Source: a virus
IMG/VR virus record: IMGVR_UViG_3300046314_000148
Location: 32,001-96,000 of that record
Length of the DNA: 64,000 nt
Reading direction: 5' to 3' (one strand)
Shown one piece after another: positions 9,024-34,218 of this stretch. The notes under the pieces were generated by a model. The model ran no database searches. It saw only the letters and a list, made by a program, of their open reading frames with translations, and was not told the DNA's origin. Position 1 is the first letter of the stretch; every line of letters starts with the position of its first letter. The position numbers were made by a program, and so were the translations under genes.

Positions 9024-9869
9024 ATGAACCAAGCGGTATTCACGTCATTTGACGAAAACTACTCTGACTATGCATTGGTAATGGTCAAGACATTTTGTGA
9101 AAATTATCACGGAGACCCTATAGATCTTTATTGCCTAGTCCCAGAAGACATCCAGCAGCTGCAGCAGGAATACATTGAAAAGTGTGGGAACCCAAATAAT
9201 GTTGTCATTCGTTTCGTAACTCTAGAGAAGCAGAAGCAGATTCAGGATAGGTTCTCTGACGATGATGTGTCTATATCCTACATTACGCTACAATGCTTTC
9301 ATCGAATATTTATTGCAGACTCGTTTCCAGATCTAGATGTTGCTATCTATATAGATCCAGATACAATCATTCTTAGAGATGTTCAGTCGCTGATAGATTA
9401 TCCATTAGCCTCTGTCATAGCTGCAAGATCGGAGAGCATAGATGACCACAAGATTTCTGTAGTTGGTGTGGACGGCATTTACTTTAACAATGGGGTATAT
9501 AAGACAGACTTAAATTTCTGGAGGTCAGAGCAGTTGGCAGATAAAATGCTCGATAGGCTTACTACTCATGGGATAACCCTGTATCCAGAACAAGACCTAA
9601 TGAATATCTTCCTAGCAGGCCACGTAGCAGAGCTGCCAATCAACTTTAACTTTTCATCTTGGCTAAGCACTATTGGATTTTTTAGTCACACGGTACCAAA
9701 CCCAATGATTCTGCACTTTGCAGGACCAGACAAGCCATGGAAAAACCATAGCCTGGAAAAGAATTGGACAGCTATCTGGAGAAGCAAATACGAAGAAATT
9801 TTTGGGGATAAGGCAGAGCATATCAAGGACTTTGAAAATCTTTACACATACGACATGGGGGACAAGTAA
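9024..9869 (+). CDS. glycosyltransferase family 8
   Basis: IYIDPD, YFNNGV, EQDLMN and ILHFAGPDKPW motifs. Confidence 0.85.
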   Translation: MNQAVFTSFDENYSDYALVMVKTFCENYHGDPIDLYCLVPEDIQQLQQEYIEKCGNPNNVVIRFVTLEKQKQIQDRFSDDDVSISYITLQCFHRIFIADSFPDLDVAIYIDPDTIILRDVQSLIDYPLASVIAARSESIDDHKISVVGVDGIYFNNGVYKTDLNFWRSEQLADKMLDRLTTHGITLYPEQDLMNIFLAGHVAELPINFNFSSWLSTIGFFSHTVPNPMILHFAGPDKPWKNHSLEKNWTAIWRSKYEEIFGDKAEHIKDFENLYTYDMGDK

Positions 9870-10549
9870 TGGATAAGCCAGACATAACCACTAAAGAGGT
9901 AGGAAACTTTGGTATATGGTACGACACTATTGATCCAAACTTTACAGAGATATCTAGGATGTCAAATATTCCCCACCACTGGTTATCTTTTCAGGAAGTC
10001 CTTGCAGGTCCATATTCCGAATCAGTAATTAAACCAATAAACAAATATGTTCAAAGACTGGTTCCTCCGCCAACCCTAGTCAGTATATCAGATGGCCAGA
10101 TACGCCTCCGCCAGGGTAACCATGCAGAATTTTTTCTTTTGGAAAGCAGTGACGGAACCTTCACCCATAGAGATAGACCATGGCAGAGACAATACTATAA
10201 CACTAGCCAGGACGGTATCGTAGCTCCAGACAATACCTTTGAGACAGCATTTAAGTTCTATGTTCCATGGATTTTAGATGAGAACGTTCATGTAAAGATA
10301 GAGCAGGTCGATGGAAGTCCATTTACAATCTTGCCTACGGAGTTTAACTACTACAAAGTTCCCGAGCAGATCCAAAACATAGAGCCAAAGTTTGTCACTT
10401 TTTTCTTTAATCGTGTTGGCACCCACATGGTGTCCGACACCTTTGGGAAGATACCAAGACAGTCCCCAATGTTTGACATGGTTTTTTCTGCAAATGGTAT
10501 ACTTATAGATAAAGTTAGGAATTTTTATGAAGAAGCAGAACGTAATTAA
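9869..10549 (+). CDS. hypothetical protein in glyco/oxygenase operon
   Basis: Long ORF with coupled start and stop. Confidence 0.6.
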   Translation: MDKPDITTKEVGNFGIWYDTIDPNFTEISRMSNIPHHWLSFQEVLAGPYSESVIKPINKYVQRLVPPPTLVSISDGQIRLRQGNHAEFFLLESSDGTFTHRDRPWQRQYYNTSQDGIVAPDNTFETAFKFYVPWILDENVHVKIEQVDGSPFTILPTEFNYYKVPEQIQNIEPKFVTFFFNRVGTHMVSDTFGKIPRQSPMFDMVFSANGILIDKVRNFYEEAERN

Positions 10550-11261
10550 GTTTTATCCACTAAACGATAAGACAGCAGAGTTTTCCCCAGAGCCTAAGCC
10601 AGGGTCTAGGGCCTTACCAGAGTGGTACAAGCAGCAGCCAGGAAGCGTAGATAATGGAGAGCTTCTTGCACAGTTCGGTCAGCCTGCCAGCACGGTAAAG
10701 AAGTGCTTGCCAATATTTGACGTTATCACAGCTGGATATATCATAGTTGCCCCACTAGACATCTACATTGACGCAACCGATCCAGATAAGCTTAGTTATC
10801 AGATTCCAGCTGCAATGACTTTGTTTAAGGGGGATATCTTTGCAACTCACGATAGAAAGCAGTATGCAAACATGCCTATGGAGTCTGACCTATACCACCA
10901 AGACTTGCTGAGGATAATGCCATTTTGGATTGCATCAACTCCCCCAGGATTTAGTGCTCTGTTCCTAGACCCACTACACAAGGACCCAACTCCGCTGACA
11001 GCACTGCCAGGACTAATCGACACCGATGGCTACCCATCAGATGGGCATCTATCGTTTAAGGTTCAGAAGGGATTCAAGGGCGTAATCAAGCAGGGCACAC
11101 CTCTAGTCCAGGTTATTCCATTTAGAAGAGAAGACTGGAAGATGGAAGTCGTCGATGCATCAGAGTCTGAGTCATTCCTAAAGAGGCACAGAATGAATCT
11201 TAGAAGCACTTTTAATAATGGTTACAAGAATAAGTTTAGATCTCCCAAGGAATATAAGTGA
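10527..11261 (+). CDS. DUF6065-like beta-rich phage protein
   Basis: LPEWYK, KKCLP, IKQGTPLVQVIPFRREDW; paralogue of the next gene. Confidence 0.55.
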   Translation: MKKQNVIKFYPLNDKTAEFSPEPKPGSRALPEWYKQQPGSVDNGELLAQFGQPASTVKKCLPIFDVITAGYIIVAPLDIYIDATDPDKLSYQIPAAMTLFKGDIFATHDRKQYANMPMESDLYHQDLLRIMPFWIASTPPGFSALFLDPLHKDPTPLTALPGLIDTDGYPSDGHLSFKVQKGFKGVIKQGTPLVQVIPFRREDWKMEVVDASESESFLKRHRMNLRSTFNNGYKNKFRSPKEYK

Positions 11262-12037
11262 GCAATGAGCCACTCAAAATTAAATTTATTCCTCCGCACC
11301 AGCAGAGAGAAGATGGTTCTGGACCCAACTTTCCACCAGAGCCAGCAGTAAGGCATGTCCCAGAATGGTATCGTGCTCTCGCAAGATTCGATAAATCTAA
11401 TAACGACATCACTCTTAATCCTAAAAACAACATAGGCACCGATGGTGCCCAGGTATCTACAAAGATGTGCATGCCATACTTTGATGCCCTTACTGCAGGG
11501 TATAACTATTGCCTAGAGGATGACCTTTACGTCGATATGGATGAAGATGGCCACCCAATAATGTCCTGGGGTGGAGATGTTATGCTAGTGGATACTAGAC
11601 CAATCTTTGACGTACCTTTGCCAGATAACTGCCACCCAATACATTACGGTTGGAGAATGAACTGGTTCTACGAGACCCCACCAGGGTATTCTGTTCTTAT
11701 AACCCACCCGATGAATAGACATGATCTCCCGTTCTATACCCTATCTGGAATAGTGGAGTCTGACATTTGGGGGCTGCCAGTGTTTACGGCCTTTTTTCTT
11801 AAGAGAAATTTTCGTGGAATAATCCCAAAAGGAACTCCAATCTTTCAGATTATTCCGTTTAAGAGAGACAACTGGGAGCTAGAGGTTGATGATAGCCAAG
11901 AGGCTATTGACGAACACTGGTTCCGTGCAGAGAATAGACGGTCAATGCTTTATGGGTACTATAAGAAAATTGCCTGGAGAAAAAAGATTTTTGGAATTTT
12001 TGGGAAAAGGGAAAAAGAGGTAAACCACGATGACTAA
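11258..12037 (+). CDS. DUF6065-like beta-rich phage protein (paralogue)
   Basis: VPEWYR, KMCMP, IPKGTPIFQIIPFKRDNW. Confidence 0.55.
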   Translation: MSNEPLKIKFIPPHQQREDGSGPNFPPEPAVRHVPEWYRALARFDKSNNDITLNPKNNIGTDGAQVSTKMCMPYFDALTAGYNYCLEDDLYVDMDEDGHPIMSWGGDVMLVDTRPIFDVPLPDNCHPIHYGWRMNWFYETPPGYSVLITHPMNRHDLPFYTLSGIVESDIWGLPVFTAFFLKRNFRGIIPKGTPIFQIIPFKRDNWELEVDDSQEAIDEHWFRAENRRSMLYGYYKKIAWRKKIFGIFGKREKEVNHDD

Positions 12038-12893
12038 TCTTCCTATAGCAATCATAGTCGTGGGCTATAAGGATAAGGGCATCCTAGATTTTGTAAAGCA
12101 CCTAAAGAGCGTTACTAGTTCTAAAAATATGGTGCTTGTCACCGATCAGCACCCACTAAAACACAAAGACGAGTTCTCGTCAGTAGATATGTGTAGCTAT
12201 GATCACGTTATCTGGGACTCAATAGATGGCCCAGCCAAGCATAGGTCAGAGAAGATATCTGATGCCGTATCATACGCAGATTATATCTGTATAGTTAGTC
12301 CAGACATATCCCTAAAGTATGGCTGGGACCTAGAATTGATCCATAAGATAGGCTCTGAACGCATAGTTCTATCTGGATCTGGAAGTATTTCTGTATCTAA
12401 CAAGGATATATTCTCGTTGTCACCCACATATACAGAATCTGAAGAATACAATACTACACAGTTTATAGATAGAAATTTCATATTTACAAAATCAGATGCA
12501 TTTTCAAAAATAGTCTTGCCAGACTTTCTTAAATATGACGGCGAGAATGAGTACCTGTCTCTAGCCATGCTATCAGCAGGATATGATATCGTCTCCGTAC
12601 CATCTGAAATCTATTCAGATTCACACATACGGTCCGTAGAGAATACCTACCATACCTTCTCGACAGAACACAACTACAACATCGTAGTGGATCTACTCAG
12701 CGGACTGGGGCTGACCGACTACGGAGTATCAGAAGAGGCACTATCAAAATTCTTAGACTTTCATGGCCTAGAGCTGGCTCCAGTTAAGAGGCTTCCTTAC
12801 TCGACAAATGATGTTATCTATGATCCATACAAGCTAAAGATGCATGGAGTCGATGCTCGCAGGTTCATTGCTGGCACAAAAGCAGTTTACTGA
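12030..12893 (+). CDS. GT-A fold glycosyltransferase, divergent GT60/GT2-like
   Basis: N-terminal IIVVGYKD, WD motif, GENEYLSL...GYDI resembling 22080..23018. Confidence 0.5.
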   Translation: MTNLPIAIIVVGYKDKGILDFVKHLKSVTSSKNMVLVTDQHPLKHKDEFSSVDMCSYDHVIWDSIDGPAKHRSEKISDAVSYADYICIVSPDISLKYGWDLELIHKIGSERIVLSGSGSISVSNKDIFSLSPTYTESEEYNTTQFIDRNFIFTKSDAFSKIVLPDFLKYDGENEYLSLAMLSAGYDIVSVPSEIYSDSHIRSVENTYHTFSTEHNYNIVVDLLSGLGLTDYGVSEEALSKFLDFHGLELAPVKRLPYSTNDVIYDPYKLKMHGVDARRFIAGTKAVY

Positions 12894-12905
12894 TATAATA
12901 TTATT

Positions 12906-13505
12906 ATGCATAGAATAACCGTGATCGATAACTTTATTAGTCCAGAGGATGCAGCCATCCTAATGGAAGAGCAGGACAGGCCATCTGAGAGAAATCCCTA
13001 TCCAGAATATTATGCCAAAAGATTTGGTGGTACAGCCTTCCCTTATAATCAGCGTGTCATGGACATCCTGATAAAGTATGGACTGCTTTCAAACGATGTT
13101 CACAAAAAGGCTAATGGGTTTGTTAATCCAATATTTGTGTTTAAGAGCTTTGGCTCGGTATGGAAGCCAGTCAGCAAGGCTGGACTACACCTAGATGCCC
13201 AGGACCCAGAACCGTTTATTGAGTTCAGCACAATCATATACTTGAATAGCCCAGACGAATACGAGGGTGGGGTAATATATTTCCCAAACCAGGATTATGA
13301 ATATAAACCGAGACAATACTCTGCTGTTTTCTTTCCGTCAGCAGGCTCGGAATATATCCACGGAATAACATCAGTTACCAGTGGTACTAGAAGAACTGCT
13401 CTCTATATGCATACCAGTATCCCAGAGCATGCAGATCCAGATTTCCACTCGGCCGAGGAAACTGCAGTTTGGCAAGCTCAGACCCACCCAAACAACAAGA
13501 AGTAG
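12906..13505 (+). CDS. 2OG-Fe(II) oxygenase, prolyl-4-hydroxylase-like
   Basis: HxD (HLD), YLN...YEGG, HGITSV..GTR. Confidence 0.85.
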   Translation: MHRITVIDNFISPEDAAILMEEQDRPSERNPYPEYYAKRFGGTAFPYNQRVMDILIKYGLLSNDVHKKANGFVNPIFVFKSFGSVWKPVSKAGLHLDAQDPEPFIEFSTIIYLNSPDEYEGGVIYFPNQDYEYKPRQYSAVFFPSAGSEYIHGITSVTSGTRRTALYMHTSIPEHADPDFHSAEETAVWQAQTHPNNKK

Positions 13506-13512
13506 CCTAGAT

Positions 13513-14157
13513 ATGAATCACGAAATTCTTGATCTTGGCTTGGTGTACTATCGTGAAGTAATAGATAGTCCACAAACAATAATTGATTTAATCGAAGATG
13601 TTGATAGGCGGTTTAGGGCCAGTGAGCACGGAGCCAACGACACCATTGTGGCAGACTGGAAGCCTTGGACATACGATCACCTATTCTTTAATTATCAAAA
13701 GTTTTTCCCAGAGGCAGAGAATGTTCCAGCAAACGACTACTATGCAAAAGAGATGATAGAGATTGCAAATGCTCTATACCCGTCCCTGAATAAGGCATTT
13801 GATCACTACTCAAAGGTTGTCTATCCCTTCGCAGGAAGAAGTGTTAAGGCTAGAGAGTACAGCATCCATCTACTAAAATATGGAGTCGGTGGCCATCTCC
13901 CAGCTCACTCCGATCAGGGTATAAGTACTAGAGTTCTATCCTCAGTCATGTATCTGAACGATGACTACGAGGGTGGAGAGATCGAGTTTATAAATTCTGG
14001 GGTAAGGATTAAGCCGCAGGCTGGTAGCGTAATATTTTTTCCATCAAACTTCTTATATGTTCACGAGGTACATCCAATAACTGATGGCTTTAGGTATTCG
14101 ATGCCGCATTGGTATCACAATAGAAAAGATTTTATTGCATCAGACGGTACCGAGTAA
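13513..14157 (+). CDS. 2OG-Fe(II) oxygenase, prolyl-4-hydroxylase-like
   Basis: HSD, YLNDDYEGGEI, HEVHPITDGFRYS. Confidence 0.88.
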   Translation: MNHEILDLGLVYYREVIDSPQTIIDLIEDVDRRFRASEHGANDTIVADWKPWTYDHLFFNYQKFFPEAENVPANDYYAKEMIEIANALYPSLNKAFDHYSKVVYPFAGRSVKAREYSIHLLKYGVGGHLPAHSDQGISTRVLSSVMYLNDDYEGGEIEFINSGVRIKPQAGSVIFFPSNFLYVHEVHPITDGFRYSMPHWYHNRKDFIASDGTE

Positions 14158-14937
14158 CATCGGTTTAAAGTCTTTATAGACACTTCTCCACAGATCCGCA
14201 TAGATAGAGGCTGACTCGTCAGCCCAAGGCTTCTGATAGCCAGCAAAATGAACAATCAATGGGTCATCATATTCCTTAGCCATTAGCTTATTATTTCCAA
14301 TTATCCAGTCAAAGAAGTTAAAAGAGAATGGAAGTGGAGATAGGTGCTTAGCCAGAATGGCGTTTAGAGAGTCTTGTTCTGCAAATTGAGTGTCTGGGTT
14401 ATGTGTGATCCACTCGACTAGCTTATCTTCTATGCTGTTAGATCTCCAAAACTCTAAATCAGCTATAAATACACCAGAGTTAAAGCACGGGACATCAGAA
14501 TTATTAAATAAACGCTTGCTGTTATTGACAGTCTCCATTACCGCAAAGAATGTACCAGACCCAGAATAATCAAGTAGTGGCGAAATATCTCTAAGTATAA
14601 TTGTATCTGGGTCTATGTATATTGCAAAATCATATTCTGGGAAAAGTGAACCAATGAATATTCTTTGATAAGCATTGGGTGTAACGTGCTGAACCCCTCT
14701 GGCATACCCATCTTTGTCTAGCTTCAGAAACTTCTCAGATATCATAAACTTAATGCGTAGATTACCCTGAGCCACAGACATTCTATAGTCATCTTCTAGA
14801 TCCATGATTGATTCTGGAACTAGGCAGACGACATCTAGTGGGGCATCCCCATGGTAGTTCATACCCAATGACTTGATGGCTACACGAGAATACCCCATGT
14901 AGTTGCTGTCGAATGAGGTAACTACTACTTTTTTCAT
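14140..14937 (-). CDS. glycosyltransferase family 8 (paralogue of 9024..9869)
   Basis: IYIDPD, FNSGV, EQDSLN, IVHFAGYQKPW. Confidence 0.85.
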   Translation of the reverse strand: MKKVVVTSFDSNYMGYSRVAIKSLGMNYHGDAPLDVVCLVPESIMDLEDDYRMSVAQGNLRIKFMISEKFLKLDKDGYARGVQHVTPNAYQRIFIGSLFPEYDFAIYIDPDTIILRDISPLLDYSGSGTFFAVMETVNNSKRLFNNSDVPCFNSGVFIADLEFWRSNSIEDKLVEWITHNPDTQFAEQDSLNAILAKHLSPLPFSFNFFDWIIGNNKLMAKEYDDPLIVHFAGYQKPWADESASIYADLWRSVYKDFKPMLLGTV

Positions 14938-15035
14938 ACATCTATAATATCATGGTATGGTTTTGGTAAAAATTACTTTACTATTACCCCCCATTCTGAT
15001 ATAATTAAGCTAATATATAAAAGTAGGAGGCCACA

Positions 15036-15845
15036 ATGGCAAAAGCACAATTCCCAATAGACGGAAAGCTTGGAAAGGACTTTAAGGCAACTAGCCTTAT
15101 GGGTATGCGTATCCACCCAGTCACCAAGCAGAAGAAGCACCACAATGGTACCGACATCTGGTCACCACATGAGCCATGCTGGATCGAGGCACCTTACGAT
15201 GCAACAGTCCTAGAGGCAAAGAAGTCAACCTCCCCAGGCGGAGGGTTTGGAAACTATGTAATTCTTCTGCACAAGATTAATGGCAAGTTCTATACTACGC
15301 TTTATGCTCACATGCAGGATGGTTCGATAAAGGTTAAGAAGGGCCAGAAGATTACTGCTGGCACCCCACTTGGAAAGATGGGTACTACTGGCATGTCTAC
15401 TGGCAAGCACCTACACTGGGAGCTTCGTCTAGGCAAGGTCCACACTTGGGACGCAAACGGAAAGTTCTACATCGAGCCAATCGCATTCTTCAAGGCACTT
15501 ATTGCACAAGAGAAGATTATTGCAACCGCAGCAGACGTAGCAACAGATGACGATCCGATTGCAGAAGCACCAGAGCACAATGAAGCACAGGCAGCCAAGG
15601 TTGATGCAGTACTTGCAGAGAAGAAGGCAGTCGCAAAGCTTGTAAAGCCAGTCCTATCTGGTGAGCTAACCATTGGTTCAACTGGTGATGCTGTGAAGTA
15701 TCTTCAGGGCAAGCTTGGAGTTTCGGTAACTGGTGAATTTGATGAGGCAACTAAGCTTGCAGCAATTACATTCCAAAAGAAGCACAAGGAAATTACTAAG
15801 CCAGACGGCGTAGTGGGTCCACTATCTTGGAAGCTCTTGGGATAA
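15036..15845 (+). CDS. endolysin: M23 peptidase plus peptidoglycan-binding domain
   Basis: HxxxD (HNGTD), HLH, C-terminal DGVVGPLSW. Confidence 0.9.
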   Translation: MAKAQFPIDGKLGKDFKATSLMGMRIHPVTKQKKHHNGTDIWSPHEPCWIEAPYDATVLEAKKSTSPGGGFGNYVILLHKINGKFYTTLYAHMQDGSIKVKKGQKITAGTPLGKMGTTGMSTGKHLHWELRLGKVHTWDANGKFYIEPIAFFKALIAQEKIIATAADVATDDDPIAEAPEHNEAQAAKVDAVLAEKKAVAKLVKPVLSGELTIGSTGDAVKYLQGKLGVSVTGEFDEATKLAAITFQKKHKEITKPDGVVGPLSWKLLG

Positions 15846-16224: not shown

Positions 16225-16457
16225 TGTCAGAGACAGTGGAGTGGGTACTCACTGCCAACGATCGTTGCGATAGTTGTGGAGCACAAGCGTATGTCCAGGT
16301 AACAGGAGTTACTGGAGACCTTGTGTTCTGCAACCATCACTATAACAAGATCATGGACAGTACCACGGGGTATGAAAAGATGATGAACTTTGCCTACAAC
16401 ATTCTTAACGAGAGAGAAAGACTTGTAGAGAATAGGTTAATAGGAAGCGACAGATGA
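16224..16457 (+). CDS. actinobacterial small Zn-finger protein (DUF7455-like)
   Basis: LTANDRCDSCGAQAYV...FCNHH. Confidence 0.7.
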   Translation: MSETVEWVLTANDRCDSCGAQAYVQVTGVTGDLVFCNHHYNKIMDSTTGYEKMMNFAYNILNERERLVENRLIGSDR

Positions 16458-17209
16458 TTATACAGATAATAGGACTACCAGGTAGTGGAAAGACCACCTT
16501 GGCTAAAGCTCTAAAGGAACGCACTAACGCTATCCACCTAAATGCAGACGAGGTACGTGCAGATATAAACTCTGACCTTGGATTTTCAGAGGCGGAAAGA
16601 GAAGAGCAGTCACGCAGACTGGGAGCAATGGCAAGGTTGTTGTCTAACCAGGGCTACGATGTGATTGTTGATTTTGTATGTCCTACTGCAGACACCAGAA
16701 CTGTTTTTGGTAGACCAGATATCCTTATTTGGATGAACACCATTAAGCAGGGAAGATTCCTAGATACAAACAAGTTGTGGCAAGATCCAGAGAATGCAGA
16801 CTACGTGTTCGAAGAGCAGATATCCGTAGATGACATGGCCTCTACAATCATAGAAGAGTTTGCACTTTTTGACTGGTCTGCACCAACGACACTAATGCTT
16901 GGAAGATACCAGCCATGGCACGAGGGCCACCAGATGCTCCGTGACCACGCTGCAGAACGAACAGATCAGATTCTAATTGGGGTTAGAAACACTTATAACA
17001 CTTCCGAAAAAGATCCATTGCCATACGACATGGTTGAAAAGCTTATTTATGATAAAAATTCTGGATATGTAAATCTTATTAAGAGGCTTCCAAACATTAC
17101 TAATATAGTTTACGGTCGTGATGTGGGGTACAAGATCGAGCAGATCGACTTGCCTGCTGAAATACAGGCCATCTCAGCTACTCAAAAACGTAAGGAGATG
17201 GGCATATGA
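16454..17209 (+). CDS. adenylylsulfate-kinase-like domain fused to HxGH nucleotidyltransferase domain
   Basis: P-loop GLPGSGKT with DLGFS..R (CysC-like); C-terminal GRYQPWHEGH. Confidence 0.8.
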   Translation: MIIQIIGLPGSGKTTLAKALKERTNAIHLNADEVRADINSDLGFSEAEREEQSRRLGAMARLLSNQGYDVIVDFVCPTADTRTVFGRPDILIWMNTIKQGRFLDTNKLWQDPENADYVFEEQISVDDMASTIIEEFALFDWSAPTTLMLGRYQPWHEGHQMLRDHAAERTDQILIGVRNTYNTSEKDPLPYDMVEKLIYDKNSGYVNLIKRLPNITNIVYGRDVGYKIEQIDLPAEIQAISATQKRKEMGI

Positions 17210-20218: not shown

Positions 20219-20929
20219 CTAGTATACTATCCTATTGTCCCAGGCATAGCTCCAGGAGATTCTACCAAGGTCGCTAGACGAAGTATCTGGCCTCTTGCTG
20301 AAGTCCTTAAAGTTCGCTACGTGAGCCCCATCGTAATGATACTCTAGGGTGGTCTTGCCAGACTTGAGATCATCTATTGTGGTAAATGAACTGCCCATCT
20401 CCCCAATCCCGATCCTCTCCGTAGCCTGAGTGAACACCCTGCCCATCTGAGCAGTGCCACCTATGTATGCTGGGTCCTTGCCATACTCTCTAGCGTTATA
20501 TATGTTAGATAAGTTTATTATGCACTCTAGAATTTCTGGTTGTCTCGGCAGAGAATATATAACAGCATTCTGGATAATGCTTTTGTATTTAAATATCTTT
20601 TTTAGGGCATTGTCTCTAAATACGATGATGTCTTTTTCTAAAGCTATCTTATCTATAAATCTAATTCCCAGGTCAGAGTAGATGCCTCCATGAACATACA
20701 GGATGCACAGCCTGGCAAGGTCTGCCTTGTAAGCGTATGGCTTAACTGCATTGTAGGCCGTAAGGACAGATGGCCCAAAGTTGCTACTAATCAGATCCTT
20801 TATCATTCGGTCATCCCATATTCGGATATCCACACCCTGGGTGCTGGCAAAGGCCCCGATCTCATCTGAATATGTATCTAGATAAACATCTCGCATGGTT
20901 CCAAGGTATATAAGATGTCCTAGATTCAT
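20219..20929 (-). CDS. glycosyltransferase family 32 (OCH1-like)
   Basis: AYKADLARLCILYVHGGIYSD. Confidence 0.8.
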   Translation of the reverse strand: MNLGHLIYLGTMRDVYLDTYSDEIGAFASTQGVDIRIWDDRMIKDLISSNFGPSVLTAYNAVKPYAYKADLARLCILYVHGGIYSDLGIRFIDKIALEKDIIVFRDNALKKIFKYKSIIQNAVIYSLPRQPEILECIINLSNIYNAREYGKDPAYIGGTAQMGRVFTQATERIGIGEMGSSFTTIDDLKSGKTTLEYHYDGAHVANFKDFSKRPDTSSSDLGRISWSYAWDNRIVY

Positions 20930-21071: not shown

Positions 21072-21530
21072 ATGGAACAATTACTTATTCAGCTCAAGCA
21101 GCTACTGGCAGACAACATTGCCCTTGCATTTAAGGCACAGGGATACCACTGGAACGTAGAGAGCGACGATTTCCCACAGTTGCACGAATTCTTCGGAAAA
21201 ATATATGAAAACTTTGGTGGTGCAACAGACGGCTATGCAGAGTGGATGCGTATGCTTAAGGTCTACGCACCATATCGCCTAGTTGACTTCTTTGACCAGA
21301 CAACCGTAGGTGAGCCATATATTATCGGGGAGCCAGAGCCAATGCTCGCTGACCTATACACATCAATTGAAAAGCACATTGCAGATCTTGTCGTCGCAGG
21401 AAAGCTAGCTAACACATCTAGCGAATTCGGACTAGCAAACTTCTTTGCCGAGCGTCAGACAGCTTCTCAGAAGCTTTGCTGGCAACTACGTGCATCTATC
21501 GAGATAGAGGAACCAGACACCAATGAATAA
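21072..21530 (+). CDS. Dps/ferritin-like protein
   Basis: YHWNV...LHEFF..IYE; leaderless start. Confidence 0.85.
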   Translation: MEQLLIQLKQLLADNIALAFKAQGYHWNVESDDFPQLHEFFGKIYENFGGATDGYAEWMRMLKVYAPYRLVDFFDQTTVGEPYIIGEPEPMLADLYTSIEKHIADLVVAGKLANTSSEFGLANFFAERQTASQKLCWQLRASIEIEEPDTNE

Positions 21531-22068
21531 TGATTTAATCACAAAGCAATCACCTTGCTGGGACGGATACGTTCAGCGTGGCATGAAGCCAGGAGAAGGT
21601 GGGGCCATGGTTCCTAACTGCGTTCCTGCAGAAAAGGCAGACGACCTATTCGAAGACTCAGACGATGTCGAATACGATACAGACTCTATGGCAAAGGCCG
21701 AAGGCTATTCTCCTCCAGCTGGTGCAAGAGCAGCAGCACGTAGAGCTATCAAGTTTAAGGAAGATGGCAAGGCTAATGGGGCTGGAACATCTGTAGGCTG
21801 GACTCGTGCAGGGCAGCTGGCAAGAGGGGAGACCATCTCTCTTAGTACTGTTAAGCGTATGTACTCATACTTCTCACGCCACGAGGTAGACAAGAAGGGC
21901 AAGGACTGGGGAAACTCTGCTAACCCATCTAATGGATACATCATGTGGCTTGCCTGGGGTGGAGATGCAGGGTACTCTTGGTCACGTAAGATAGCCCAGA
22001 AGGCTTCGGACAAGGCCCTATTCTCTGACTTCGGCAAAGATTACACAAAGTCTTCTAAGATAGTTTAG
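21523..22068 (+). CDS. conserved phage protein, possibly head-associated
   Basis: PCWDGY...PNCVP motif and TVKRMYSYFSRH...WLAWGGDAG domain. Confidence 0.55.
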   Translation: MNNDLITKQSPCWDGYVQRGMKPGEGGAMVPNCVPAEKADDLFEDSDDVEYDTDSMAKAEGYSPPAGARAAARRAIKFKEDGKANGAGTSVGWTRAGQLARGETISLSTVKRMYSYFSRHEVDKKGKDWGNSANPSNGYIMWLAWGGDAGYSWSRKIAQKASDKALFSDFGKDYTKSSKIV

Positions 22069-22079: not shown

Positions 22080-23018
22080 ATGGGTCAGCCCACTATATTC
22101 ATAACCATACCAGCATACGAGGATCCTCAGCTCCTGGAGACCATAGAGGGGGCACTGGACAATGCCTTATATCCAGAAAGACTATTCTTTTGTATTGGTA
22201 TGCAATACAGAGTTCTGCCAGATATATCTAAATACCTAAGTAATCCAAATTTCAAATTTTTATTTTATGATGTAGATACTAGACCAGGTGTGTACCAGAT
22301 CAGAAAAGAGATGGCAGACGAGCACAGCGGCCAGGACTATTTTATGATGATCGACTCACACATGACATTTGTCAAGTATTGGGACTCTATGTTGGTAAAT
22401 GACTATAAAAATTTGGTGGCAACTCACGGAGAAAAGACCGTGATGTCTAAGCCAGTGACACACAAGATAGGCTTGACCCTAAACAATGGGCATATAAACG
22501 ATTATCCATGTTGGGAGATAAATCGCAATGTCAGCCCTAAAGAGATCAATAGGTTTTTAATTCCAGCAGTTCGCAACATCCCATGGAATGGTGATAGATT
22601 TATAAAGATATACTACGCCTGTAGCCATTTCTTTTTTACTAGCAAAAAGTTTCTAGAGGACCTTGGATTTTTCTCAGGTATAAGATTCTATTGCGAGGAA
22701 CTAATAACTAGCGTCCTAATTTACATATCTGGTTGGGACATATACATGAATCCATCTCATATATTAGTTGGCCACGATGATAAAAAAACCATGAGAAGCC
22801 TATACAATAGAGATAGCTACTCTCTGGCCGATGGCAAGACCTTTACGGCAATAGAAGATGACGGGGGTACCAAGTTGGAGATTGCAAGGTTTGTGCTAAC
22901 TGGAAAGTCTAAGCTCATAGATGTGAACGCTAGCAGATCAGTAGAAGATTATTACACGGTGTCTGGCCTAGCTGACGTATATCGTGAGCTAAAGGTCGAA
23001 AATCTAATATTAGATTAA
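22080..23018 (+). CDS. GT60-like (Pfam GlcNAc) N-acetylglucosaminyltransferase
   Basis: TIFITIPAYED, A.YPERL, IDSHM.F..YWD, EELI...GWDIY. Confidence 0.75.
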   Translation: MGQPTIFITIPAYEDPQLLETIEGALDNALYPERLFFCIGMQYRVLPDISKYLSNPNFKFLFYDVDTRPGVYQIRKEMADEHSGQDYFMMIDSHMTFVKYWDSMLVNDYKNLVATHGEKTVMSKPVTHKIGLTLNNGHINDYPCWEINRNVSPKEINRFLIPAVRNIPWNGDRFIKIYYACSHFFFTSKKFLEDLGFFSGIRFYCEELITSVLIYISGWDIYMNPSHILVGHDDKKTMRSLYNRDSYSLADGKTFTAIEDDGGTKLEIARFVLTGKSKLIDVNASRSVEDYYTVSGLADVYRELKVENLILD

Positions 23019-23642: not shown

Positions 23643-24536
23643 ATGATACTAGTCACAGGTGGTGCAGGATTTATTGGATCCCATCTGGTCGATAAGCTAA
23701 TCAGTGATGGCTTCACCGTGCGAGTAATTGATAACGAGTCTGCCACAGAGAATGATGCCTTCTACTGGAACCCAGAGGCAGACAACCACAAGCTAGACGT
23801 GGCTAACTATGAAGCAACTAGGCATCTCTATGATGGAATAGAGGTTGTCTACCATCTGGCAGCAATCTCCAGAATACAGCCAGCAATTGCCAGCCCACAT
23901 TCTGTAGTAGAAACAAACATTGTTGGTACAGAAAATGTCCTTCGCTGTTCCGCAGAGGCAGGGGTGCAAAGGTTTGTATTCTCATCATCCTCATCTATTT
24001 ATGGTAATAACGATATTCCAAATGTGGAATCTCAGAATGCAGACTGCCTAAACGCATACTCATCAAGCAAGCTCTCTGGCGAGCTCATGTGCAATGCAAT
24101 GCATGGTGTATCTGGAATGGAAACAATCTCTCTTAGATTTTTTAATGTTTATGGTGAGCGTCAGCCGTTACGAGGTAAGTACGCAACAGTAATTGGCCTA
24201 TTCCTTCTCCAGGCCAAAAGAAATTTGCCGCTTACCATAGTGGGTGACGGGCATCAGACAAGAAGCTTTACTCATGTCTCGGATGTTGTAGATGCATGCT
24301 ACAGAGCAGGATTCTCTGTTCCCTGGGATGGGGCATTCGGGGATACCTATAACGTAGGCTATGAAACCTCGTACTCCATAAATGATGTTGCCAAAATGAT
24401 ATCAGATAACACTGCCAGCATCCCAGAAAGAATAGGGGAAGCTAGGCACACACTATCTGACTCCTCTAAGTTTAAGGATGTCTTTGGGTGGAAGCCAAAT
24501 GTATCTCTAGAGGATTGGGTAGCCCAGAATGTCTAA
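23643..24536 (+). CDS. NAD-dependent nucleotide-sugar epimerase/dehydratase
   Basis: TGGAGFIGSH, SSSS, YxxxK, RFFNVYG. Confidence 0.9.
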   Translation: MILVTGGAGFIGSHLVDKLISDGFTVRVIDNESATENDAFYWNPEADNHKLDVANYEATRHLYDGIEVVYHLAAISRIQPAIASPHSVVETNIVGTENVLRCSAEAGVQRFVFSSSSSIYGNNDIPNVESQNADCLNAYSSSKLSGELMCNAMHGVSGMETISLRFFNVYGERQPLRGKYATVIGLFLLQAKRNLPLTIVGDGHQTRSFTHVSDVVDACYRAGFSVPWDGAFGDTYNVGYETSYSINDVAKMISDNTASIPERIGEARHTLSDSSKFKDVFGWKPNVSLEDWVAQNV

Positions 24537-25284
24537 CATGCTAATTATTGGCAAAGGAAAAGTAGGCCAGGCAACAGCAAGAAGCTTACCCTCAGCGACC
24601 ATAGACTTTCACGATCCATACATGGGTATGGTAATCGATGACCCAAGTAGCTATAGCCATGTGATTATCTGTGTAGATACTCTTCAGCAAGGGCCGAGAG
24701 ATTACAGAGATCTGGACTCTGTCCTAGAATATCTAAGCTCCTACAAGAACCTTGTGATAGTCAGAAGCACTATCGATCCAGATAAGGCCAGGGAGCTGGG
24801 CCACCTCTTTGGAGATAACCTAATTATTTTCCCAGAGTTCATGGACCATCATGACTTTAAAAATCAGCGTGACCCAGCCTCTAGGATTGTGCTAGGGGGA
24901 GCCATCAGCATGACTAATGCCTTCTTCGAATTGCTGGGAGATCTCGGGTATCCATGGATTAGAGACACGTTCTTCGTATCTCATGAAGAAGCATCAATAA
25001 TAAAACTATCATCTAACGCAGCATTAGCCACTAAGGTAATCATGTTTAATGCAATATACGAGATCTGCAATAATTATGGAGTACCCTACGATGAGGTCAG
25101 GAAGGCTATAGGTGCTGATTCTAGAATTGGTCTTGGACATACCCTGGTGCCAAGTCCAGATGATGGCCAGCTAGGGTTTGGTGGCCATTGCTTGCCAAAA
25201 GACATAAAGGCAATAGCAGACATTGACAGCCTTGGATTCTTTAGTTTCGTAAACAATTTAAATAAAAGGCTTGGCAGATCCTAA
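24529..25284 (+). CDS. UDP-glucose/GDP-mannose dehydrogenase-like, lacking the C-terminal domain
   Basis: GxGxVG, RST, PEF, GFGGHCLPKD. Confidence 0.8.
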   Translation: MSNMLIIGKGKVGQATARSLPSATIDFHDPYMGMVIDDPSSYSHVIICVDTLQQGPRDYRDLDSVLEYLSSYKNLVIVRSTIDPDKARELGHLFGDNLIIFPEFMDHHDFKNQRDPASRIVLGGAISMTNAFFELLGDLGYPWIRDTFFVSHEEASIIKLSSNAALATKVIMFNAIYEICNNYGVPYDEVRKAIGADSRIGLGHTLVPSPDDGQLGFGGHCLPKDIKAIADIDSLGFFSFVNNLNKRLGRS

Positions 25285-28936: not shown

Positions 28937-29464
28937 GTGGACATATCTATAAACAGTTTTCCAAGAAGTGGATCACAGTTTCTTAAGTTTAATCTAGATA
29001 ATATGATTGGACATCGAAGAGTTGCCAAAAATCCACCGAATCTTCATAAGATACTTAAAGATAGAAGCTACTTTCAGGTTGTTGTTGTCAGAAATCCGAG
29101 GGACACTGTAATATCCTGCATCGCTCATTCGGAATACCTTAGACACGGGAGCAGCAAGAACATAAAACAGGTGCTAGTAGACACCTTGCGAGAGTACTGT
29201 AATGCAATAGATAACTTTTTGGAAAATGTACAGCATATAAATCTTTACGATTTTGAATATCTGGATTGGGCAGTAATTGATATTGCAAACAAGGCAAAGA
29301 TTGATATTCCAGACAGCTTTGTCCTTACTCCAAAGCACTACAGTGTGAGCGACACAGATTTTTATCAGGACCTATTGGATGCAGACATAGATGACTCTTT
29401 ATTTGAAGAGGCAAATAAGAAGTACGAGTCAATCCTAAGCTTCTGCCAGAGACCTGCAGATTAA
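28937..29464 (+). CDS. sulfotransferase-like P-loop protein
   Basis: 5'-PSB-like SFPRSGSQFL and 3'-PB-like VRNPRD...S. Confidence 0.65.
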   Translation: MDISINSFPRSGSQFLKFNLDNMIGHRRVAKNPPNLHKILKDRSYFQVVVVRNPRDTVISCIAHSEYLRHGSSKNIKQVLVDTLREYCNAIDNFLENVQHINLYDFEYLDWAVIDIANKAKIDIPDSFVLTPKHYSVSDTDFYQDLLDADIDDSLFEEANKKYESILSFCQRPAD

Positions 29465-30159
29465 TTAGAGCTAGCAGTACTTTCATATATAGATGGTTCT
29501 GGAAACATCTCCATCAGCATATCAAGAATCTTTTCAAACGAGCTGTCTTCTGTGGACAGGAAGTAGGATTCCCCACTCAGGAAGTCGTATGACCTAGAGC
29601 TCATCCTTCCCTTAGAGTATACCTTTACATCATTGCTTATCGATCCACCGATACCAAAGATGTTTCCATAGTTTGATCTTTCTAAGTATGGCATAGTGAG
29701 CACCTTGTCAAGCAGTATCTTATTCATGACCATCGGTACGTGGATGTCATAGTCTAGTGGATTTGGAATGCCAAGCTTAACCAGTCTCTTGTGAGTGCTT
29801 GCCAGCAGCCTAGTGTACACTGAGCTTGGGGTTAGCTTCTGATACAGGGACACACGATCTTCCAGCAGTCCACCATGCAGCACTGGAATAGAGTCTATCT
29901 TTTTAGTGATAAAGAAATCATCGTGCATTGAAACAAAGTCATCAGATATTTCATCGCTGCTCACTATGGCAGACATGCACTTCTTTATATTATCAAACTT
30001 ATACTGGGTATCTCGAATTGGAATAAAGTTTCCAGTGTACCACTTAGGCTTATAGCCAATGACCCATATGTTTCCAGGTGGTAGGTTTTCAACAACAGAT
30101 CGAATCGAGTATCGAAGCTCTTCGTTATCACCTTTACGACAGATGTAAACGTAATCCAT
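29461..30159 (-). CDS. Stealth-CR2-like sugar-phosphotransferase homologue
   Basis: DNEELRYSIRSV; FV.MHDDFF. Confidence 0.6.
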   Translation of the reverse strand: MDYVYICRKGDNEELRYSIRSVVENLPPGNIWVIGYKPKWYTGNFIPIRDTQYKFDNIKKCMSAIVSSDEISDDFVSMHDDFFITKKIDSIPVLHGGLLEDRVSLYQKLTPSSVYTRLLASTHKRLVKLGIPNPLDYDIHVPMVMNKILLDKVLTMPYLERSNYGNIFGIGGSISNDVKVYSKGRMSSRSYDFLSGESYFLSTEDSSFEKILDMLMEMFPEPSIYESTASSN

Positions 30160-31193
30160 TATTCTCCGTGGTGATTAGGAAAAACCTTCGCAGTGTTCTC
30201 ACACATATCATCTACAAGATCAACGAAGGAACGCTTTCTAACCCATCCAAGCTTGGTAGAAGCCTTTGTGCAGTCTCCTAGAAGGGTCTCTACCTCTGCT
30301 GGTCTAAAGAACTTAGGGTTAATTCTAATAACAGTCTTGCCAGAAATGGTGTCAACACCAACCTCATCTAGGCCTTCACCCTGCCACTCGATCTTCATTC
30401 CGAAATAGTCTCCAGCCTTCTCAACAAACTCTCTGACCGAGTGCTGCTCTCCAGTAGAGATTACATAGTCATCGGGGGCATCCTGCTGTAGCATTAGCCA
30501 CATTGCGTATACGAAATCTTTTGCATGCCCCCAGTCTCGCATGGCATCTAGGTTGCCCAGCTCTAGGACATCCTGTCTTCCAACACTAATGTTGTTTAAA
30601 CCAAGAACGATTTTGCTTGTAACAAAGTTTACTCCACGTCTCGGGCTCTCGTGATTGAAGAGAATGCCGCTAGACGCATGCATACCGTAAGACTCTCTAT
30701 AGTTCTTGGTAATCCAGTGGCCATATAGCTTTGCTACACCGTAAGGAGAGCGAGGGTAGAAGTCTGTAGTTTCTTTCTGAGGTACTTCTTGGACAAGGCC
30801 AAACATCTCAGAGGTGCTTGCCTGATAGAAGCGAGTCTTATCCTTTAGTCCTAGAACTCGGATTGCCTCTAAGATTCTTAGTGGCCCAAGGGCATCTGTC
30901 TCAGCAGTAAACTCTGCGGTATCAAACGATACCTGGACATGGCTCTGAGCACCCAGGTTATAGACCTCATCTGGCTCAATGATCTTAATAAGATTAGTTA
31001 TTGACGCAGAGTCTGTCAAGTCTCCTTGGTGGAGAAATAGGCTGTCATTATCAAGAATGTTCTTGATTCGTGTAAAGTTATCAGTCGATGATCTACGAAC
31101 AAGTCCGTGTACTTCGTATCCGATGTTTAGCAGTAGTTCTGCCAAGTATGAACCATCTTGTCCAGTGATTCCCGTGATGAGAGCTTTCTTCAT
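30159..31193 (-). CDS. gmd: GDP-mannose 4,6-dehydratase
   Basis: [49 protein letters not shown]. Confidence 0.97.
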
Positions 31194-31260: not shown

Positions 31261-33189
31261 TTGTCAAGAGTATTAGTATTATCTTCAACCCCAGACCCGT
31301 TCTCAGAAAATCATGGGGGTAAGCAGCGACTAGTAAAGTTACTGAGATCGCTTTCAACCAGGCATTCCGTCACCCTATTATCCCTTAGCTGGGAAGGGCA
31401 GGAGTTTCGCAAAGAGATATCCGAAAGACTTATCCACATATCAGTTGCAGTAGAGCCAGAGGTTATTCGTGCAGCCAGGGGAAGAACGACCCTTAAGAAG
31501 CCAAACAACGACACAAGAATTGCATACTTTAAAAGATACTTCAAGAGCTATAAGGCCAAGCTAAAGGACCTAGCAGAGGTTCACGACATCATTGTTGTAG
31601 ACCACTATGCAACAGCACCACTAGTTCATTCAGTCAAGACAGACATTCCAGTTTTCTATTCCTCTCAGAACTTTGAAACAGACCTTGCTAACCAGGTTTT
31701 CCCAAAAAGATCTGAAGATATCCGCATAGTAAATGAAACTGAGAAAGATATCATAGATCGATCATCTGCCATAGGATACTGTTCCGTAGATGACTTCGAG
31801 GCAATGAGGTCTCATTTCATTATTGATAAGCCAGCATATTACATTCCAAATGGAAATGATATGGTTCCTGGCATATCTGCTGGGGCAGGTCAGAAGTCAA
31901 AGAGAATTATCTTTATTGGAAGCGGTCACCCACCAAACATTATTGCAGCAGAAAGAGTTATAGAGTTGGCAAAGATGGTTCCAGACTATGACTTCGTAAT
32001 AGCTGGCTCCTGTGTCGGTGGTGTTGACCACCTACCAGCTCCAAAGAACCTTATTAAGATAAGGGAGATTAGCAATGACGAAGTAGAGGACCTATTCTCT
32101 AATGCCTTTGCCTTTATCAACCCAATGAAGTCTGGTTCTGGAACACACCTCAAGATGATGAAGGCTCTTAGCTATGGGCTGCCCATCATTTCATCACCAG
32201 TAGGGGCTAGAGGATTCTCTCAGGCAGAGAAGGATAGCTGCATGGTTATCTCTGAAACTCCAGAGGAAATGGTAAAGGCTATAAAGCTTATTACCGATTC
32301 TGCAGTATACAACAAGATGTCTGAAAGATCGCTAGAGCTTTCAAAAGACTACGACTGGAAAAAGATCGGGGAGTCCTTTATCTCTGCGATTGAACAAACG
32401 ATAGCAAACAAAAGAGAAGGCCTACCCATGATACAGGTTGAAACTAACAATGATCCAAAGAAGGAAAAGATTCTTCTATATTCGATCATTAGAAATGAAA
32501 GTAAATATATAGATTCATACCACAAGAAGCTAAACAATATTGTTAAGAACTTCCCCAACTATGAATTCTATCTATCTATCTATGAGAACGACTCTACTGA
32601 TGACACTAAGCAAAAGCTTCAGGGCAAGGACTGGTCATCATTTTCTCGTGTATCTCTAATCTTAGAGGATGTTCAGACCAAGTTCTATGGCTCAGTCAAG
32701 GATGGCGATCGAGTAAAGAACCTGTCAATAGCCAGGAACAAGGCCATAGAGGCTGGCGGATTTATCAACGATGTTGACTACGTCATGATGGTAGAGGCTG
32801 ACGTAGAGTTTGACATGAACACTGTTTCCAGAATCCTCAACTTCAAGAATGTTGTGCCAGACTTCGACATCGTATCTGGAATAACCATTCGTAATAAGAG
32901 ATTATATGATCAGTGGGCTACCAGAAAGAAACCAGTCTACGACGAGGGCATCTATCCAATTGATGACGACTACAAGATGAAGGCTTACGATAGGTACTAC
33001 TCTACATCTAATGGTATCTGCCTGTACAGGGCCAAGCCATTCCAAGAGGGCATCCGTTATGGATGGATAAACAATGTCACCAATGAATTTGATTGTGAGA
33101 TGGTTGTTGTCTGCCAAAGCTTCCATGACAACGGTTACGAGAATGTCTATATAATCCATGATGCAGAGATATATCACGAACACAAATAG
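31261..33189 (+). CDS. two-domain glycosyltransferase (GT4-like plus GT-A domain)
   Basis: GSGTHLKMMKALSYGLPIISS; C-domain YENDSTDDT...RN.AI...EAD. Confidence 0.8.
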   Translation: MSRVLVLSSTPDPFSENHGGKQRLVKLLRSLSTRHSVTLLSLSWEGQEFRKEISERLIHISVAVEPEVIRAARGRTTLKKPNNDTRIAYFKRYFKSYKAKLKDLAEVHDIIVVDHYATAPLVHSVKTDIPVFYSSQNFETDLANQVFPKRSEDIRIVNETEKDIIDRSSAIGYCSVDDFEAMRSHFIIDKPAYYIPNGNDMVPGISAGAGQKSKRIIFIGSGHPPNIIAAERVIELAKMVPDYDFVIAGSCVGGVDHLPAPKNLIKIREISNDEVEDLFSNAFAFINPMKSGSGTHLKMMKALSYGLPIISSPVGARGFSQAEKDSCMVISETPEEMVKAIKLITDSAVYNKMSERSLELSKDYDWKKIGESFISAIEQTIANKREGLPMIQVETNNDPKKEKILLYSIIRNESKYIDSYHKKLNNIVKNFPNYEFYLSIYENDSTDDTKQKLQGKDWSSFSRVSLILEDVQTKFYGSVKDGDRVKNLSIARNKAIEAGGFINDVDYVMMVEADVEFDMNTVSRILNFKNVVPDFDIVSGITIRNKRLYDQWATRKKPVYDEGIYPIDDDYKMKAYDRYYSTSNGICLYRAKPFQEGIRYGWINNVTNEFDCEMVVVCQSFHDNGYENVYIIHDAEIYHEHK

Positions 33190-33487: not shown

Positions 33488-33493
33488 CAGTAT

Positions 33494-33577
33494 CTCTTGG
33501 TGGCGGAATGGTAGACGCACTAGACTTAAAATCTGGGTCCGCAAGGAGTGTGGGTTCGAGTCCCACCTGAGAGACCA
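33494..33577 (+). tRNA. tRNA-Leu(TAA), CCA encoded
   Basis: CTAGA-CT-TAA-AA-TCTGG; long variable arm. Confidence 0.92.
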
Positions 33578-33578
33578 C

Positions 33579-33651
33579 CCCTCCATAGCTCAGTGGATAG
33601 AGCAAGAGCCTTCTAATCTCTTGGTCGTAGGTTCGATTCCTACTGGGGGGA
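33579..33651 (+). tRNA. tRNA-Arg(TCT)
   Basis: CT-TCT-AA loop; cloverleaf. Confidence 0.93.
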
Positions 33652-33672
33652 CTTATGTTAAAATAGGATACA

Positions 33673-34218
33673 ATGTCAATTCAAATTATAAAGAACTTTA
33701 TCTCAGCCAAGGAAGCTGAACCAATCATCTCGTTCATAGATGACAACCTGTCTAGATTTGTATACAACGCTGATCGTAGCAGATGGATGATGAGATTCGG
33801 TTACGATGAAGAGCTTCCTCACCAGGCGATACACAGCATTGAGCCAGCAGCAGAGATTAGAGATAATCTTATTAGTATCTTTGAGAAGACCAACAAGATG
33901 CTTGACGGCGAGACATATCTTACGTCGTGGTTTCTTTCTAAGCAACACTCTGGTGGCAGACTTATGTCTCATAAGGATGGAGTTCCTGGCGGAATCAATG
34001 ATCAGCTGGAGTATACCGCCATGCTGTATTTAAATACTTTAGATGGTAACGGAATGATCTCGTTTCCAGATGCTGGCTTCGGGGTAACTCCAGAAGTGGG
34101 GGACCTAATAATCTTTAAGTCCAAGGAAGACAGGCACGAAGTCTTCCCCATCACAGAGGATAGGTACTCGCTGCCTATGTGGTTTACAAAAAATAAAAAG
34201 TTTGAGTTTATGCAATAA
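33673..34218 (+). CDS. 2OG-Fe(II) oxygenase, prolyl-4-hydroxylase-like
   Basis: HKD, LYLN, HEVFPI..DRYS. Confidence 0.85.
   Translation: MSIQIIKNFISAKEAEPIISFIDDNLSRFVYNADRSRWMMRFGYDEELPHQAIHSIEPAAEIRDNLISIFEKTNKMLDGETYLTSWFLSKQHSGGRLMSHKDGVPGGINDQLEYTAMLYLNTLDGNGMISFPDAGFGVTPEVGDLIIFKSKEDRHEVFPITEDRYSLPMWFTKNKKFEFMQ

Follow-up and report, generated by a model that had tools for sequence, protein, structure and literature searches.

The Skp1 pathway of Dictyostelium and Toxoplasma comprises the prolyl 4-hydroxylase (P4H) PhyA, the GT60 transferase Gnt1, PgtA, the GT32 enzyme Glt1 or AgtA, and the GT8 enzyme Gat1. Among viruses, collagen-type modification is represented by the prolyl 4-hydroxylase of PBCV-1 and the lysyl hydroxylase-glucosyltransferase L230 of mimivirus. 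Aquatic phages carry very many 2-oxoglutarate (2OG)-Fe(II) oxygenases and glycosyltransferases (GTs) that are unexplained. Iyer et al. 2010 tied a dUTPase-fold Cys protein to dioxygenase arrays and peptide modification, and proposed the hydroxylation and then sulfation of collagen-like or tail-collar proteins (PMC2938197). Here we analyze a 64,000-nucleotide window (bases 32001-96000) of the 112,245-bp IMG/VR record IMGVR_UViG_3300046314_000148, the genome of an uncultured, lake-derived phage that is rated complete by CheckV, and describe a six-gene cassette that combines P4H-type oxygenases, a GT60-like transferase and dUTPase-fold proteins, together with a second, canonical GT60 gene nearby. 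Positions refer to the window unless "genome" is stated. An earlier note, made from the letters alone, had likened enzymes scattered over this region to the Skp1 pathway, and every enzyme it named is present at the position it gave. Literature searches on GT60 and phage, DUF6065, and phage P4H with glycosyltransferase returned no paper describing the cassette.

The cassette (9869-14157) consists of six genes (9869, 10527, 11258, 12030, 12906 and 13513) that lie on one strand and overlap or abut. It encodes three dUTPase-fold paralogues, a GT60-like GT-A protein and two P4H-type oxygenases. The earlier note had missed that the first three genes form one conserved cassette with the other three. 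We tentatively read the oxygenases and GTs as a system for the cytoplasmic hydroxylation, then glycosylation, of a protein, a proposal based on sequence comparison to which we give a little less than an even chance. That the sugar would be linked specifically to hydroxyproline (Hyp) is doubtful.

To survey the cassette, we searched IMG/VR with the 11258 family, confirmed at least 599 stretches and kept the best 80 as loci. Loci compared in this work carry L numbers; the closest relative is L008 (IMGVR_UViG_3300012352_000388). Wherever the contig reaches, all of these best 80 of at least 599 loci keep the same gene order: a 9869-type gene, one or two 11258-type genes, a 12030-type gene, and one or two oxygenases. 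The order persists although 12030-type identity drops to 23-30%, and a 12030-type gene is found in four of four complete or near-complete relatives tested (80-117 kb). The co-occurrence of P4H-type and GT60-like genes that the earlier note proposed to look for is thus borne out in every one of the best 80 viral contigs. The coupling of the cassette GT to the oxygenases is absolute but block-inherited, one event kept over deep divergence. Matches between GenBank phages and the region are tRNA-sized only (megablast), and no DNA there is shared with a cultured phage. Phage hallmarks in the genome include a portal protein, an Mtd_N-type fibre, collagen-like fibre matches, ribonucleotide reductase (RNR) and ThyX, along with 16 tRNA genes. 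A WhiB gene at 18867 fits an actinobacterial host, which is probable.

The two cassette oxygenases, Oxy1 (12906..13505, + strand; PF13640, E 1.4e-7) and Oxy2 (13513..14157, + strand; E 8e-17), are joined by Oxy3 (33673..34218, + strand; E 3e-8) and by a fourth PF13640 oxygenase in the fibre module outside the window (genome 99787-100308). The translations of Oxy1, Oxy2 and Oxy3 retain an intact HxD...H...R set, and the iron-triad H, D and H and the 2OG-binding R are invariant in alignments of both the Oxy2 group (A4) and the Oxy1/3/4 group (A5). The true start of Oxy2 is at 13513, as the earlier note had placed it; a longer open reading frame (ORF) from 13381 overlaps 12906. Against solved structures, the A5 profile matches P3H1 best (E 1e-10), followed by the Bacillus anthracis P4H, PHD2 and the PBCV-1 P4H, while the A4 profile finds P3H1 (E 1e-7), the PKHD-type structure 3dkq (4e-7), the B. 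anthracis P4H (8e-7) and PHD2, and also matches the PBCV-1 P4H, LH3 and Tpa1. By these profiles, the oxygenases come closest, among proteins of solved structure, to prolyl and lysyl hydroxylases that act on proteins. The "P4H-like" label that all three genes in the window had been given is therefore fair, with peptidyl-proline as a putative substrate. An extended -10 promoter-like site (TG-TATAAT; 12871-12899), a consensus match only, ends 7 nt before the Oxy1 ATG, and the oxygenases may perhaps be transcribed apart from the first four or five cassette genes, as a leaderless message; a promoter and terminator scan of 8200-15200 performed no better than on shuffled sequence.

The gene at 22080..23018 (+ strand) encodes a canonical GT60-family transferase (PF11397, 63.4 bits against a cut-off of 21). 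Asp92-Ser93-His94 and His232 are invariant across 25 homologues, and all 54 homologues found are metagenomic or viral. In GT27 and GT60, both families of polypeptide O-glycosyltransferases, DxD takes the special form DxH, and its combination with a C-terminal His is their hallmark (PMC7185993). The fourth cassette gene (12030..12893, + strand) encodes a GT-A protein that is recognized as GT60-like through profile and orthologue matches and whose metal motif is degenerate. It has no Pfam match itself; PF11397 is matched by 16 of 27 orthologues (best E 3e-8), and alignment of its family profile (A7) to that of 22080 (A1) with hhalign gives 98.3% probability and an E value of 1e-14. The protein is a true but degenerate GT60 relative by these comparisons, so the clear and the divergent GT60 that the earlier note had told apart both hold up. 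Its metal motif reads S-P-D instead of D-x-H; elsewhere in the family the same column reads S-D-D, G-D-S or S-E-H, and some copies have no acidic residue there, while the WD that comes next and an H-N-Y-N further on are retained. Judged by these motifs, 22080 would be the better catalytic candidate in the genome. Searches of PDB sequences with 22080 and its family profile gave no match, and thus no solved GT60 structure, while the 12030 family profile gave chance-level rows only. No relative of the GT60-like gene turned up when 185,579 species genomes were scanned, although the scan is pattern-based and hence weak evidence of absence. Upstream of the canonical gene lies a 181-residue protein (21523-22068; phrog_2859) with a Cys-rich N-terminal motif, which is a constant upstream neighbour of the canonical GT60 in many relatives (in the order Dps, 21523-type, GT60); an Atlas search with it was uninformative.

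Oxygenase and GT60 genes also meet in other, independent arrangements. In L007, Oxy1 directly abuts a canonical GT60 gene, and L022-L025 have an Oxy3-type gene that runs into the start of a GT60 paralogue.

The likeness to the Skp1 pathway is genuine for its first two steps. In both systems the enzymes are soluble and cytoplasmic, and a genetic link joins a P4H-superfamily oxygenase to a DxH-bearing PF11397/GT60 transferase; the phage genome also has GT8 and GT32-family genes and a GDP-sugar enzyme. Beyond the pairing of P4H-superfamily oxygenase and GT60, the resemblance that the earlier note had drawn is not supported. Both GT8 genes, one at 9024..9869 (+ strand; PF01501, E 1.4e-31) and the other, 39% identical to it, at 14140..14937 (- strand; E 1.4e-32), belong to the family as claimed. 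The first is LgtC/RfaJ-like, with 3tzt, LgtC and GlyE as its best PDB matches, and the second matches LgtC at E 1e-10 versus 0.038 for Gat1. Both match 3tzt, LgtC and WbbM at E 1e-9 to 1e-12, while Gat1 (6mw5) scores E 0.038 and glycogenin E 1.2; GlyE (5gvv) ranks high in the PDB searches with either protein, and both match the NCBIfam lipopolysaccharide (LPS) 3-alpha-galactosyltransferase model. In sequence they are of the bacterial LgtC type, not the Gat1 or glycogenin type. The GT32-like protein (20219..20929, - strand; PF04488, 39.8 bits against a cut-off of 23) also matches its family, but the match spans only residues 35-94, the DxD region, its sole PDB match is of the Och1 type (E 0.18), and in its motif GGIYSDLG a Gly replaces the second Asp of DxD. 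GDP-mannose 4,6-dehydratase (Gmd; 30159..31193, - strand; PF16363, E 5e-142) is present, without a GDP-fucose synthase partner: the only other short-chain dehydrogenase/reductase (SDR) is a nucleotide-sugar epimerase/dehydratase at 23643..24536 (+ strand; Pfam), which reaches 47 bits with the Fcl model against a cut-off of 500 and is better described as GalE/LegB-like. No PgtA homologue emerged when the ORFs of the region were scanned with Pfam. Bacteria lack the Skp1 acceptor, and the phage differs further in having four oxygenases, two or more GT60-family genes, a sulfotransferase and, in its core, three dUTPase-fold proteins, which have no counterpart known in the protist pathway. The phage system may work like PhyA and Gnt1, though it is no copy of the pathway.

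The remaining half of the cassette is formed by the dUTPase-fold trio. The products of 10527..11261 and 11258..12037 (both + strand) are paralogues with 27% identity that both match phrog_7084 (E 5e-42 for 10527, which carries the motif GLIDTD); 11258 also has a weak DUF6065 match and an invariant Cys, Cys71, kept in 53 sequences of its family, which counts 1568 cluster representatives in metagenomes. An AlphaFold2 (AF2) model of 11258 (pLDDT 88.7) matches dUTPases and dCTP deaminases only (Foldseek E 1e-4; VIA Z 9.4); the first 22 VIA rows all belong to that superfamily, and the next fold follows at Z 2.9. The first cassette gene (9869..10549, + strand) has no match in Pfam or PHROG and encodes a more divergent protein. 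The top 22 VIA matches of its AF2 model (pLDDT 89.7) are all from the dUTPase/dCTP-deaminase superfamily but weak (Z 5.7-3.4), and its profile aligns with that of the 11258 family (D65) over the C-terminal motif at E 6e-4 and only 29.6% probability. On its model, 11258 has the dUTPase jelly-roll fold, and the case for 9869 is weaker. Read by eye, the D65 consensus retains a dUTPase motif III-like GIVDxD (GLIDTD in 10527) and a motif IV-like GTPIxQ, has a Pro at the position of the motif IV Arg, and lacks the Gly-rich motif V. No gene anywhere in the genome matches PF00692, the canonical dUTPase. Single-copy D65 homologues adjoin RNR genes, without oxygenases or transferases, in halovirus HF2 (L110, 48119-49003) and cyanophage S-RIM4 (L111, 158324-159118).

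In Syn9, gp43 belongs to the same family (matched by 10527 at E 4e-4) and is located beside the oxygenases gp45, gp48 and gp50; the D65-family gene there is accompanied by halogenases and ten dioxygenases. This array is the nearest published observation, and 11258 with its cassette fits the pattern of classical 2OG dioxygenases adjoining a dUTPase-fold Cys protein (Iyer et al. 2010, PMC2938197). Both loci unite the invariant-Cys family with classical 2OG-Fe(II) dioxygenases in a phage. With regard to the sulfation proposal, the phage described here has a sulfotransferase and a collagen-like fibre. The present array differs in being short, with two oxygenases, and in having three dUTPase-fold paralogues, a GT60-like gene, no halogenases, and glycosyltransferases around it.

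Iyer et al. proposed for the Syn9 arrays the tailoring of a small peptide or secondary metabolite, akin to a ribosomally synthesized and post-translationally modified peptide (RiPP). For the cassette such a role, whose product would be a diffusible or host-directed compound in place of a modified protein, would draw on the same dUTPase-fold Cys protein accompanying dioxygenase and halogenase arrays, and on two kinds of gene that resemble natural-product tailoring enzymes and lie beside the cassette among the best 80 of at least 599 loci: a NodU/CmcH carbamoyltransferase (31 loci) and a family without a Pfam match that carries a GDSL-like motif, read by eye (29 loci). However, no conserved precursor-peptide gene, nonribosomal peptide synthetase or polyketide synthase, cyclase, protease or exporter was seen beside the cassette, and GT60/GT27-type transferases are polypeptide enzymes (PMC7185993). 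We give this explanation only a slim chance.

Beyond the two GT8s, the GT32-like protein, Gmd and the SDR, the region encodes further enzymes of sugar metabolism. A 251-residue homologue of nucleotide-sugar dehydrogenases (24529..25284, + strand) matches the central domain of UDPG_MGDP_dh only, and keeps the catalytic GGHCLPKD motif but lacks the C-terminal UDP-binding domain, so the UDP-sugar dehydrogenase named in the earlier note is present in a short form. The same short form (~63% identical) is conserved in L022 and L023 and is therefore not a local truncation. A small sulfotransferase (28937..29464, + strand; PF00685, 22.9 bits against a cut-off of 22) shows the motifs PRSGS and RNPRDTVIS in its translation, of the type that binds 3'-phosphoadenosine 5'-phosphosulfate. 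A phrog_7999 protein with weak Stealth_CR2 likeness (29461..30159, - strand) is a possible sugar-phosphate transferase, and a GT4 (GT-B) domain is fused to a CAP59/Anp1-type GT-A domain at 31261..33189 (+ strand; Pfam). We rejected a plain adenosine 5'-phosphosulfate (APS) kinase for 16454-17209, whose product joins a P-loop kinase to a nucleotidyltransferase with an HxGH motif (GRYQPWHEGH).

The genes directly beside the cassette differ by sub-lineage in the best 80 of at least 599 loci and are sugar-tailoring enzymes. GT8s flank it here and in L008, GT60 paralogues in several contigs, and a Stealth-like gene and a GT4/GT-A gene in L072-L078; the NodU/CmcH carbamoyltransferase (31 loci) and the GDSL-like family (29 loci) belong to the same variable set. 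The 9024-type GT8 occupies this position only here and in L008 among the first 24 related loci, and recurs in L035. Flanking proteins are 88-98% identical between this phage and L008, whereas the GTs are less so (12030, 73%; the second GT8, 53%; GT60, 48%; GT32, 76%), which suggests that the sugar-transferase genes have been exchanged or are evolving faster than their neighbours. The GT60 gene is placed differently in L008. A fixed core with variable sugar enzymes is a glycosylation-island layout, and it is the main support for a glycan product. In one relative (L101:6413-7054), a gene with a GmrSD_C-type nuclease domain lies two or three genes downstream of the cassette; the GmrSD family is known to cut DNA containing glucosylated hydroxymethylcytosine.

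The transferases and oxygenases are all free of hydrophobic or transmembrane segments, and the genome encodes no polytopic protein resembling a flippase (Wzx), a polymerase (Wzy) or an initiating phosphoglycosyl transferase. Because the enzymes are soluble and no polytopic export protein is present, the acceptor should be cytoplasmic or at the inner membrane face. In this respect the locus recalls the glycosylation of streptococcal serine-rich-repeat adhesins by GtfA/B and GT8s such as GlyE, in which soluble GT8s extend a protein-linked GlcNAc, with GlyE recovered among the matches of the phage GT8s. In contrast to that system, the phage has no GtfA/B pair, accessory Sec system or serine-rich repeat protein, and the initiator here would be of the GT60 type.

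Three candidate substrates are encoded by the phage. The first is a PT/PE-rich protein with one C-terminal hydrophobic anchor (4860..6611, + strand); of the 51 loci with enough flank, 20 have a Pro-rich ORF ahead of the cassette. The second is a collagen-like tail-fibre protein (55838..56539, + strand) with 13 G-X-Y triplets, three of which have Pro at the Y position. The third, outside the window, is a fibre-region protein (genome 98168-98890) with FN3-like Ser/Thr-rich repeats and a hydrophobic PFGVFGFG repeat tail. It opens a segment (genome 98168-100308) that continues with a 224-residue gene and the fourth oxygenase. The order fibre, 98168-type protein, paralogues of the 224-residue gene (multiplied in relatives) and oxygenase recurs in four of the five complete relatives used for substrate comparisons; among these five, only the closest carries the repeat tail. 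An M23 endolysin beside the cassette was considered as a protein with a Pro-rich linker and rejected, as it has no such linker. A host protein is also a possible target. The pairing of a hydroxylase with a collagen-like fibre invites comparison with the giant viruses: there, too, a viral P4H-superfamily hydroxylase is found with a glycosyltransferase, and PBCV-1 P4H and LH3 are among the PDB matches of the oxygenases. Those viruses, however, infect eukaryotes and use other GT families (the GT25/LH3 type), and the collagen-like gene is missing from three of five cassette-bearing relatives of the phage.

A number of observations weigh against the hydroxylation and glycosylation of a protein. Lineage synteny alone could explain the conservation of the cassette. 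The 12030 protein may be metal-independent or non-catalytic, because the DxH position varies and is sometimes lost, and thus would perhaps transfer no sugar. Among 33 canonical GT60 genes, only five have oxygenase neighbours, and since a rough estimate of chance gives about three, this count alone is not evidence. The cassette itself is surrounded by genes of nucleotide metabolism (RNR, ThyX, a deoxynucleoside monophosphate (dNMP) kinase and an SNase nuclease), half of its six proteins have the fold of a nucleotide hydrolase, and the oxygenase profiles also match the Naegleria Tet protein NgTet1 at E 6e-5 to 4e-4. Finally, the Pro-rich and collagen-like proteins that the earlier note had put forward as substrates are not conserved alongside the cassette: the 4860 N-domain is found in one, and the 55838 protein in two, of the five complete relatives, and we reject either as an obligatory substrate.

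The scatter of the accessory GTs across 25 kb among unrelated genes, the 8 kb between 22080 and the nearest cassette oxygenase, and the near-chance adjacency of canonical GT60 and oxygenase genes would fit two activities that are unlinked. The GTs, nucleotide-sugar enzymes and sulfotransferase would then build or remodel a glycan without hydroxylation, on host envelope intermediates at the inner membrane face or on protein Ser/Thr, and the oxygenases would have an unrelated function, like the many unexplained ones of other aquatic phages. The closeness of the GT8s to enzymes of LPS, lipooligosaccharide and O-antigen synthesis (LgtC, WbbM and the NCBIfam model) agrees with an envelope acceptor, and Ser/Thr acceptors are used by all characterised GT27 enzymes and most GT60 enzymes (PMC7185993). 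Yet the cassette GT60-like gene always adjoins two oxygenases in the best 80 of at least 599 loci, oxygenase and GT60 genes overlap in other relatives, and sugar-tailoring genes cluster directly beside the cassette in several sub-lineages; an envelope role would also have to do without a phage flippase, polymerase or initiating phosphoglycosyl transferase. On balance we consider unlinked functions unlikely, while allowing them a real chance.

The nucleotide-metabolism setting bears on a different explanation, the hypermodification of nucleotides or DNA as a protection against restriction. Pyrimidine nucleotides would be processed by the dUTPase-fold proteins, and a base would be hydroxylated by the oxygenases, in the manner of JBP and TET, and then glycosylated by the GT-A enzymes. 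Three dUTPase-fold proteins with motif III- and IV-like GLIDTD and GTPxxQ, a genome without a canonical dUTPase, a T4-type dNMP kinase next to RNR, ThyX and SNase in the neighbourhood, the association of D65 homologues with RNR in HF2 and S-RIM4, and the weak Tet_JBP and NgTet1 matches would all be compatible with it. The Tet_JBP score of Oxy2, however, is 20.4 bits, below the cut-off of 34.9, versus 62 bits for PF13640, and among solved structures the oxygenases match protein hydroxylases best. The complete genome contains neither a ThyA-type hydroxymethylase (PF00303) nor a C5 DNA methylase (PF00145), in searches whose controls were positive. Motif V of dUTPases and the Arg of motif IV are missing from the D65 family, which in Syn9 accompanies halogenases and ten dioxygenases, not DNA enzymes. 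The GT60/GT27-like family is, moreover, known for polypeptide acceptors only (PMC7185993). DNA hypermodification is quite improbable on this evidence.

For the hydroxylation and glycosylation of a protein, the order of events would be as follows. The oxygenases would hydroxylate protein side chains, with proline as the likeliest residue, and a GT60-family transferase, for which 22080 is the best candidate, would add the first sugar. A strain-variable accessory set comprising the two GT8s, the GT32-like protein, the GT4/GT-A fusion, the Stealth-like protein, Gmd, the SDR, the short dehydrogenase and the sulfotransferase would then extend or decorate the glycan. The target could be a host protein or, on the side of the phage, a fibre or Pro-rich protein. 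The dUTPase-fold trio may, speculatively, assemble into a heterotrimer whose role would be to handle a uridine nucleotide or a nucleotide sugar, or else to present the substrate. In its fuller version, the cassette and 22080 would together form a cytoplasmic system for prolyl hydroxylation and Hyp-O-glycosylation, with the heterotrimer handling a nucleotide sugar or presenting the substrate, and strain-variable GTs diversifying the glycan on a fibre or host protein; taken with all its parts, this version is rather unlikely.

The cassette and its relatives provide a concrete, clonable enzyme set, with at least 599 viral contig matches, for asking whether phages hydroxylate and glycosylate proteins. 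If the DNA-modification explanation were true instead, the cassette would represent a new route to base hypermodification. If the protein-modification reading is true, hydroxyproline-type glycosylation, as found in protists and plants, would extend to bacterial viruses, a Hyp-linked case being the first outside eukaryotes, and the dUTPase fold would gain a new role. Such a system would also be a candidate explanation for strain-level surface variation of abundant freshwater actinophages, or for host takeover.

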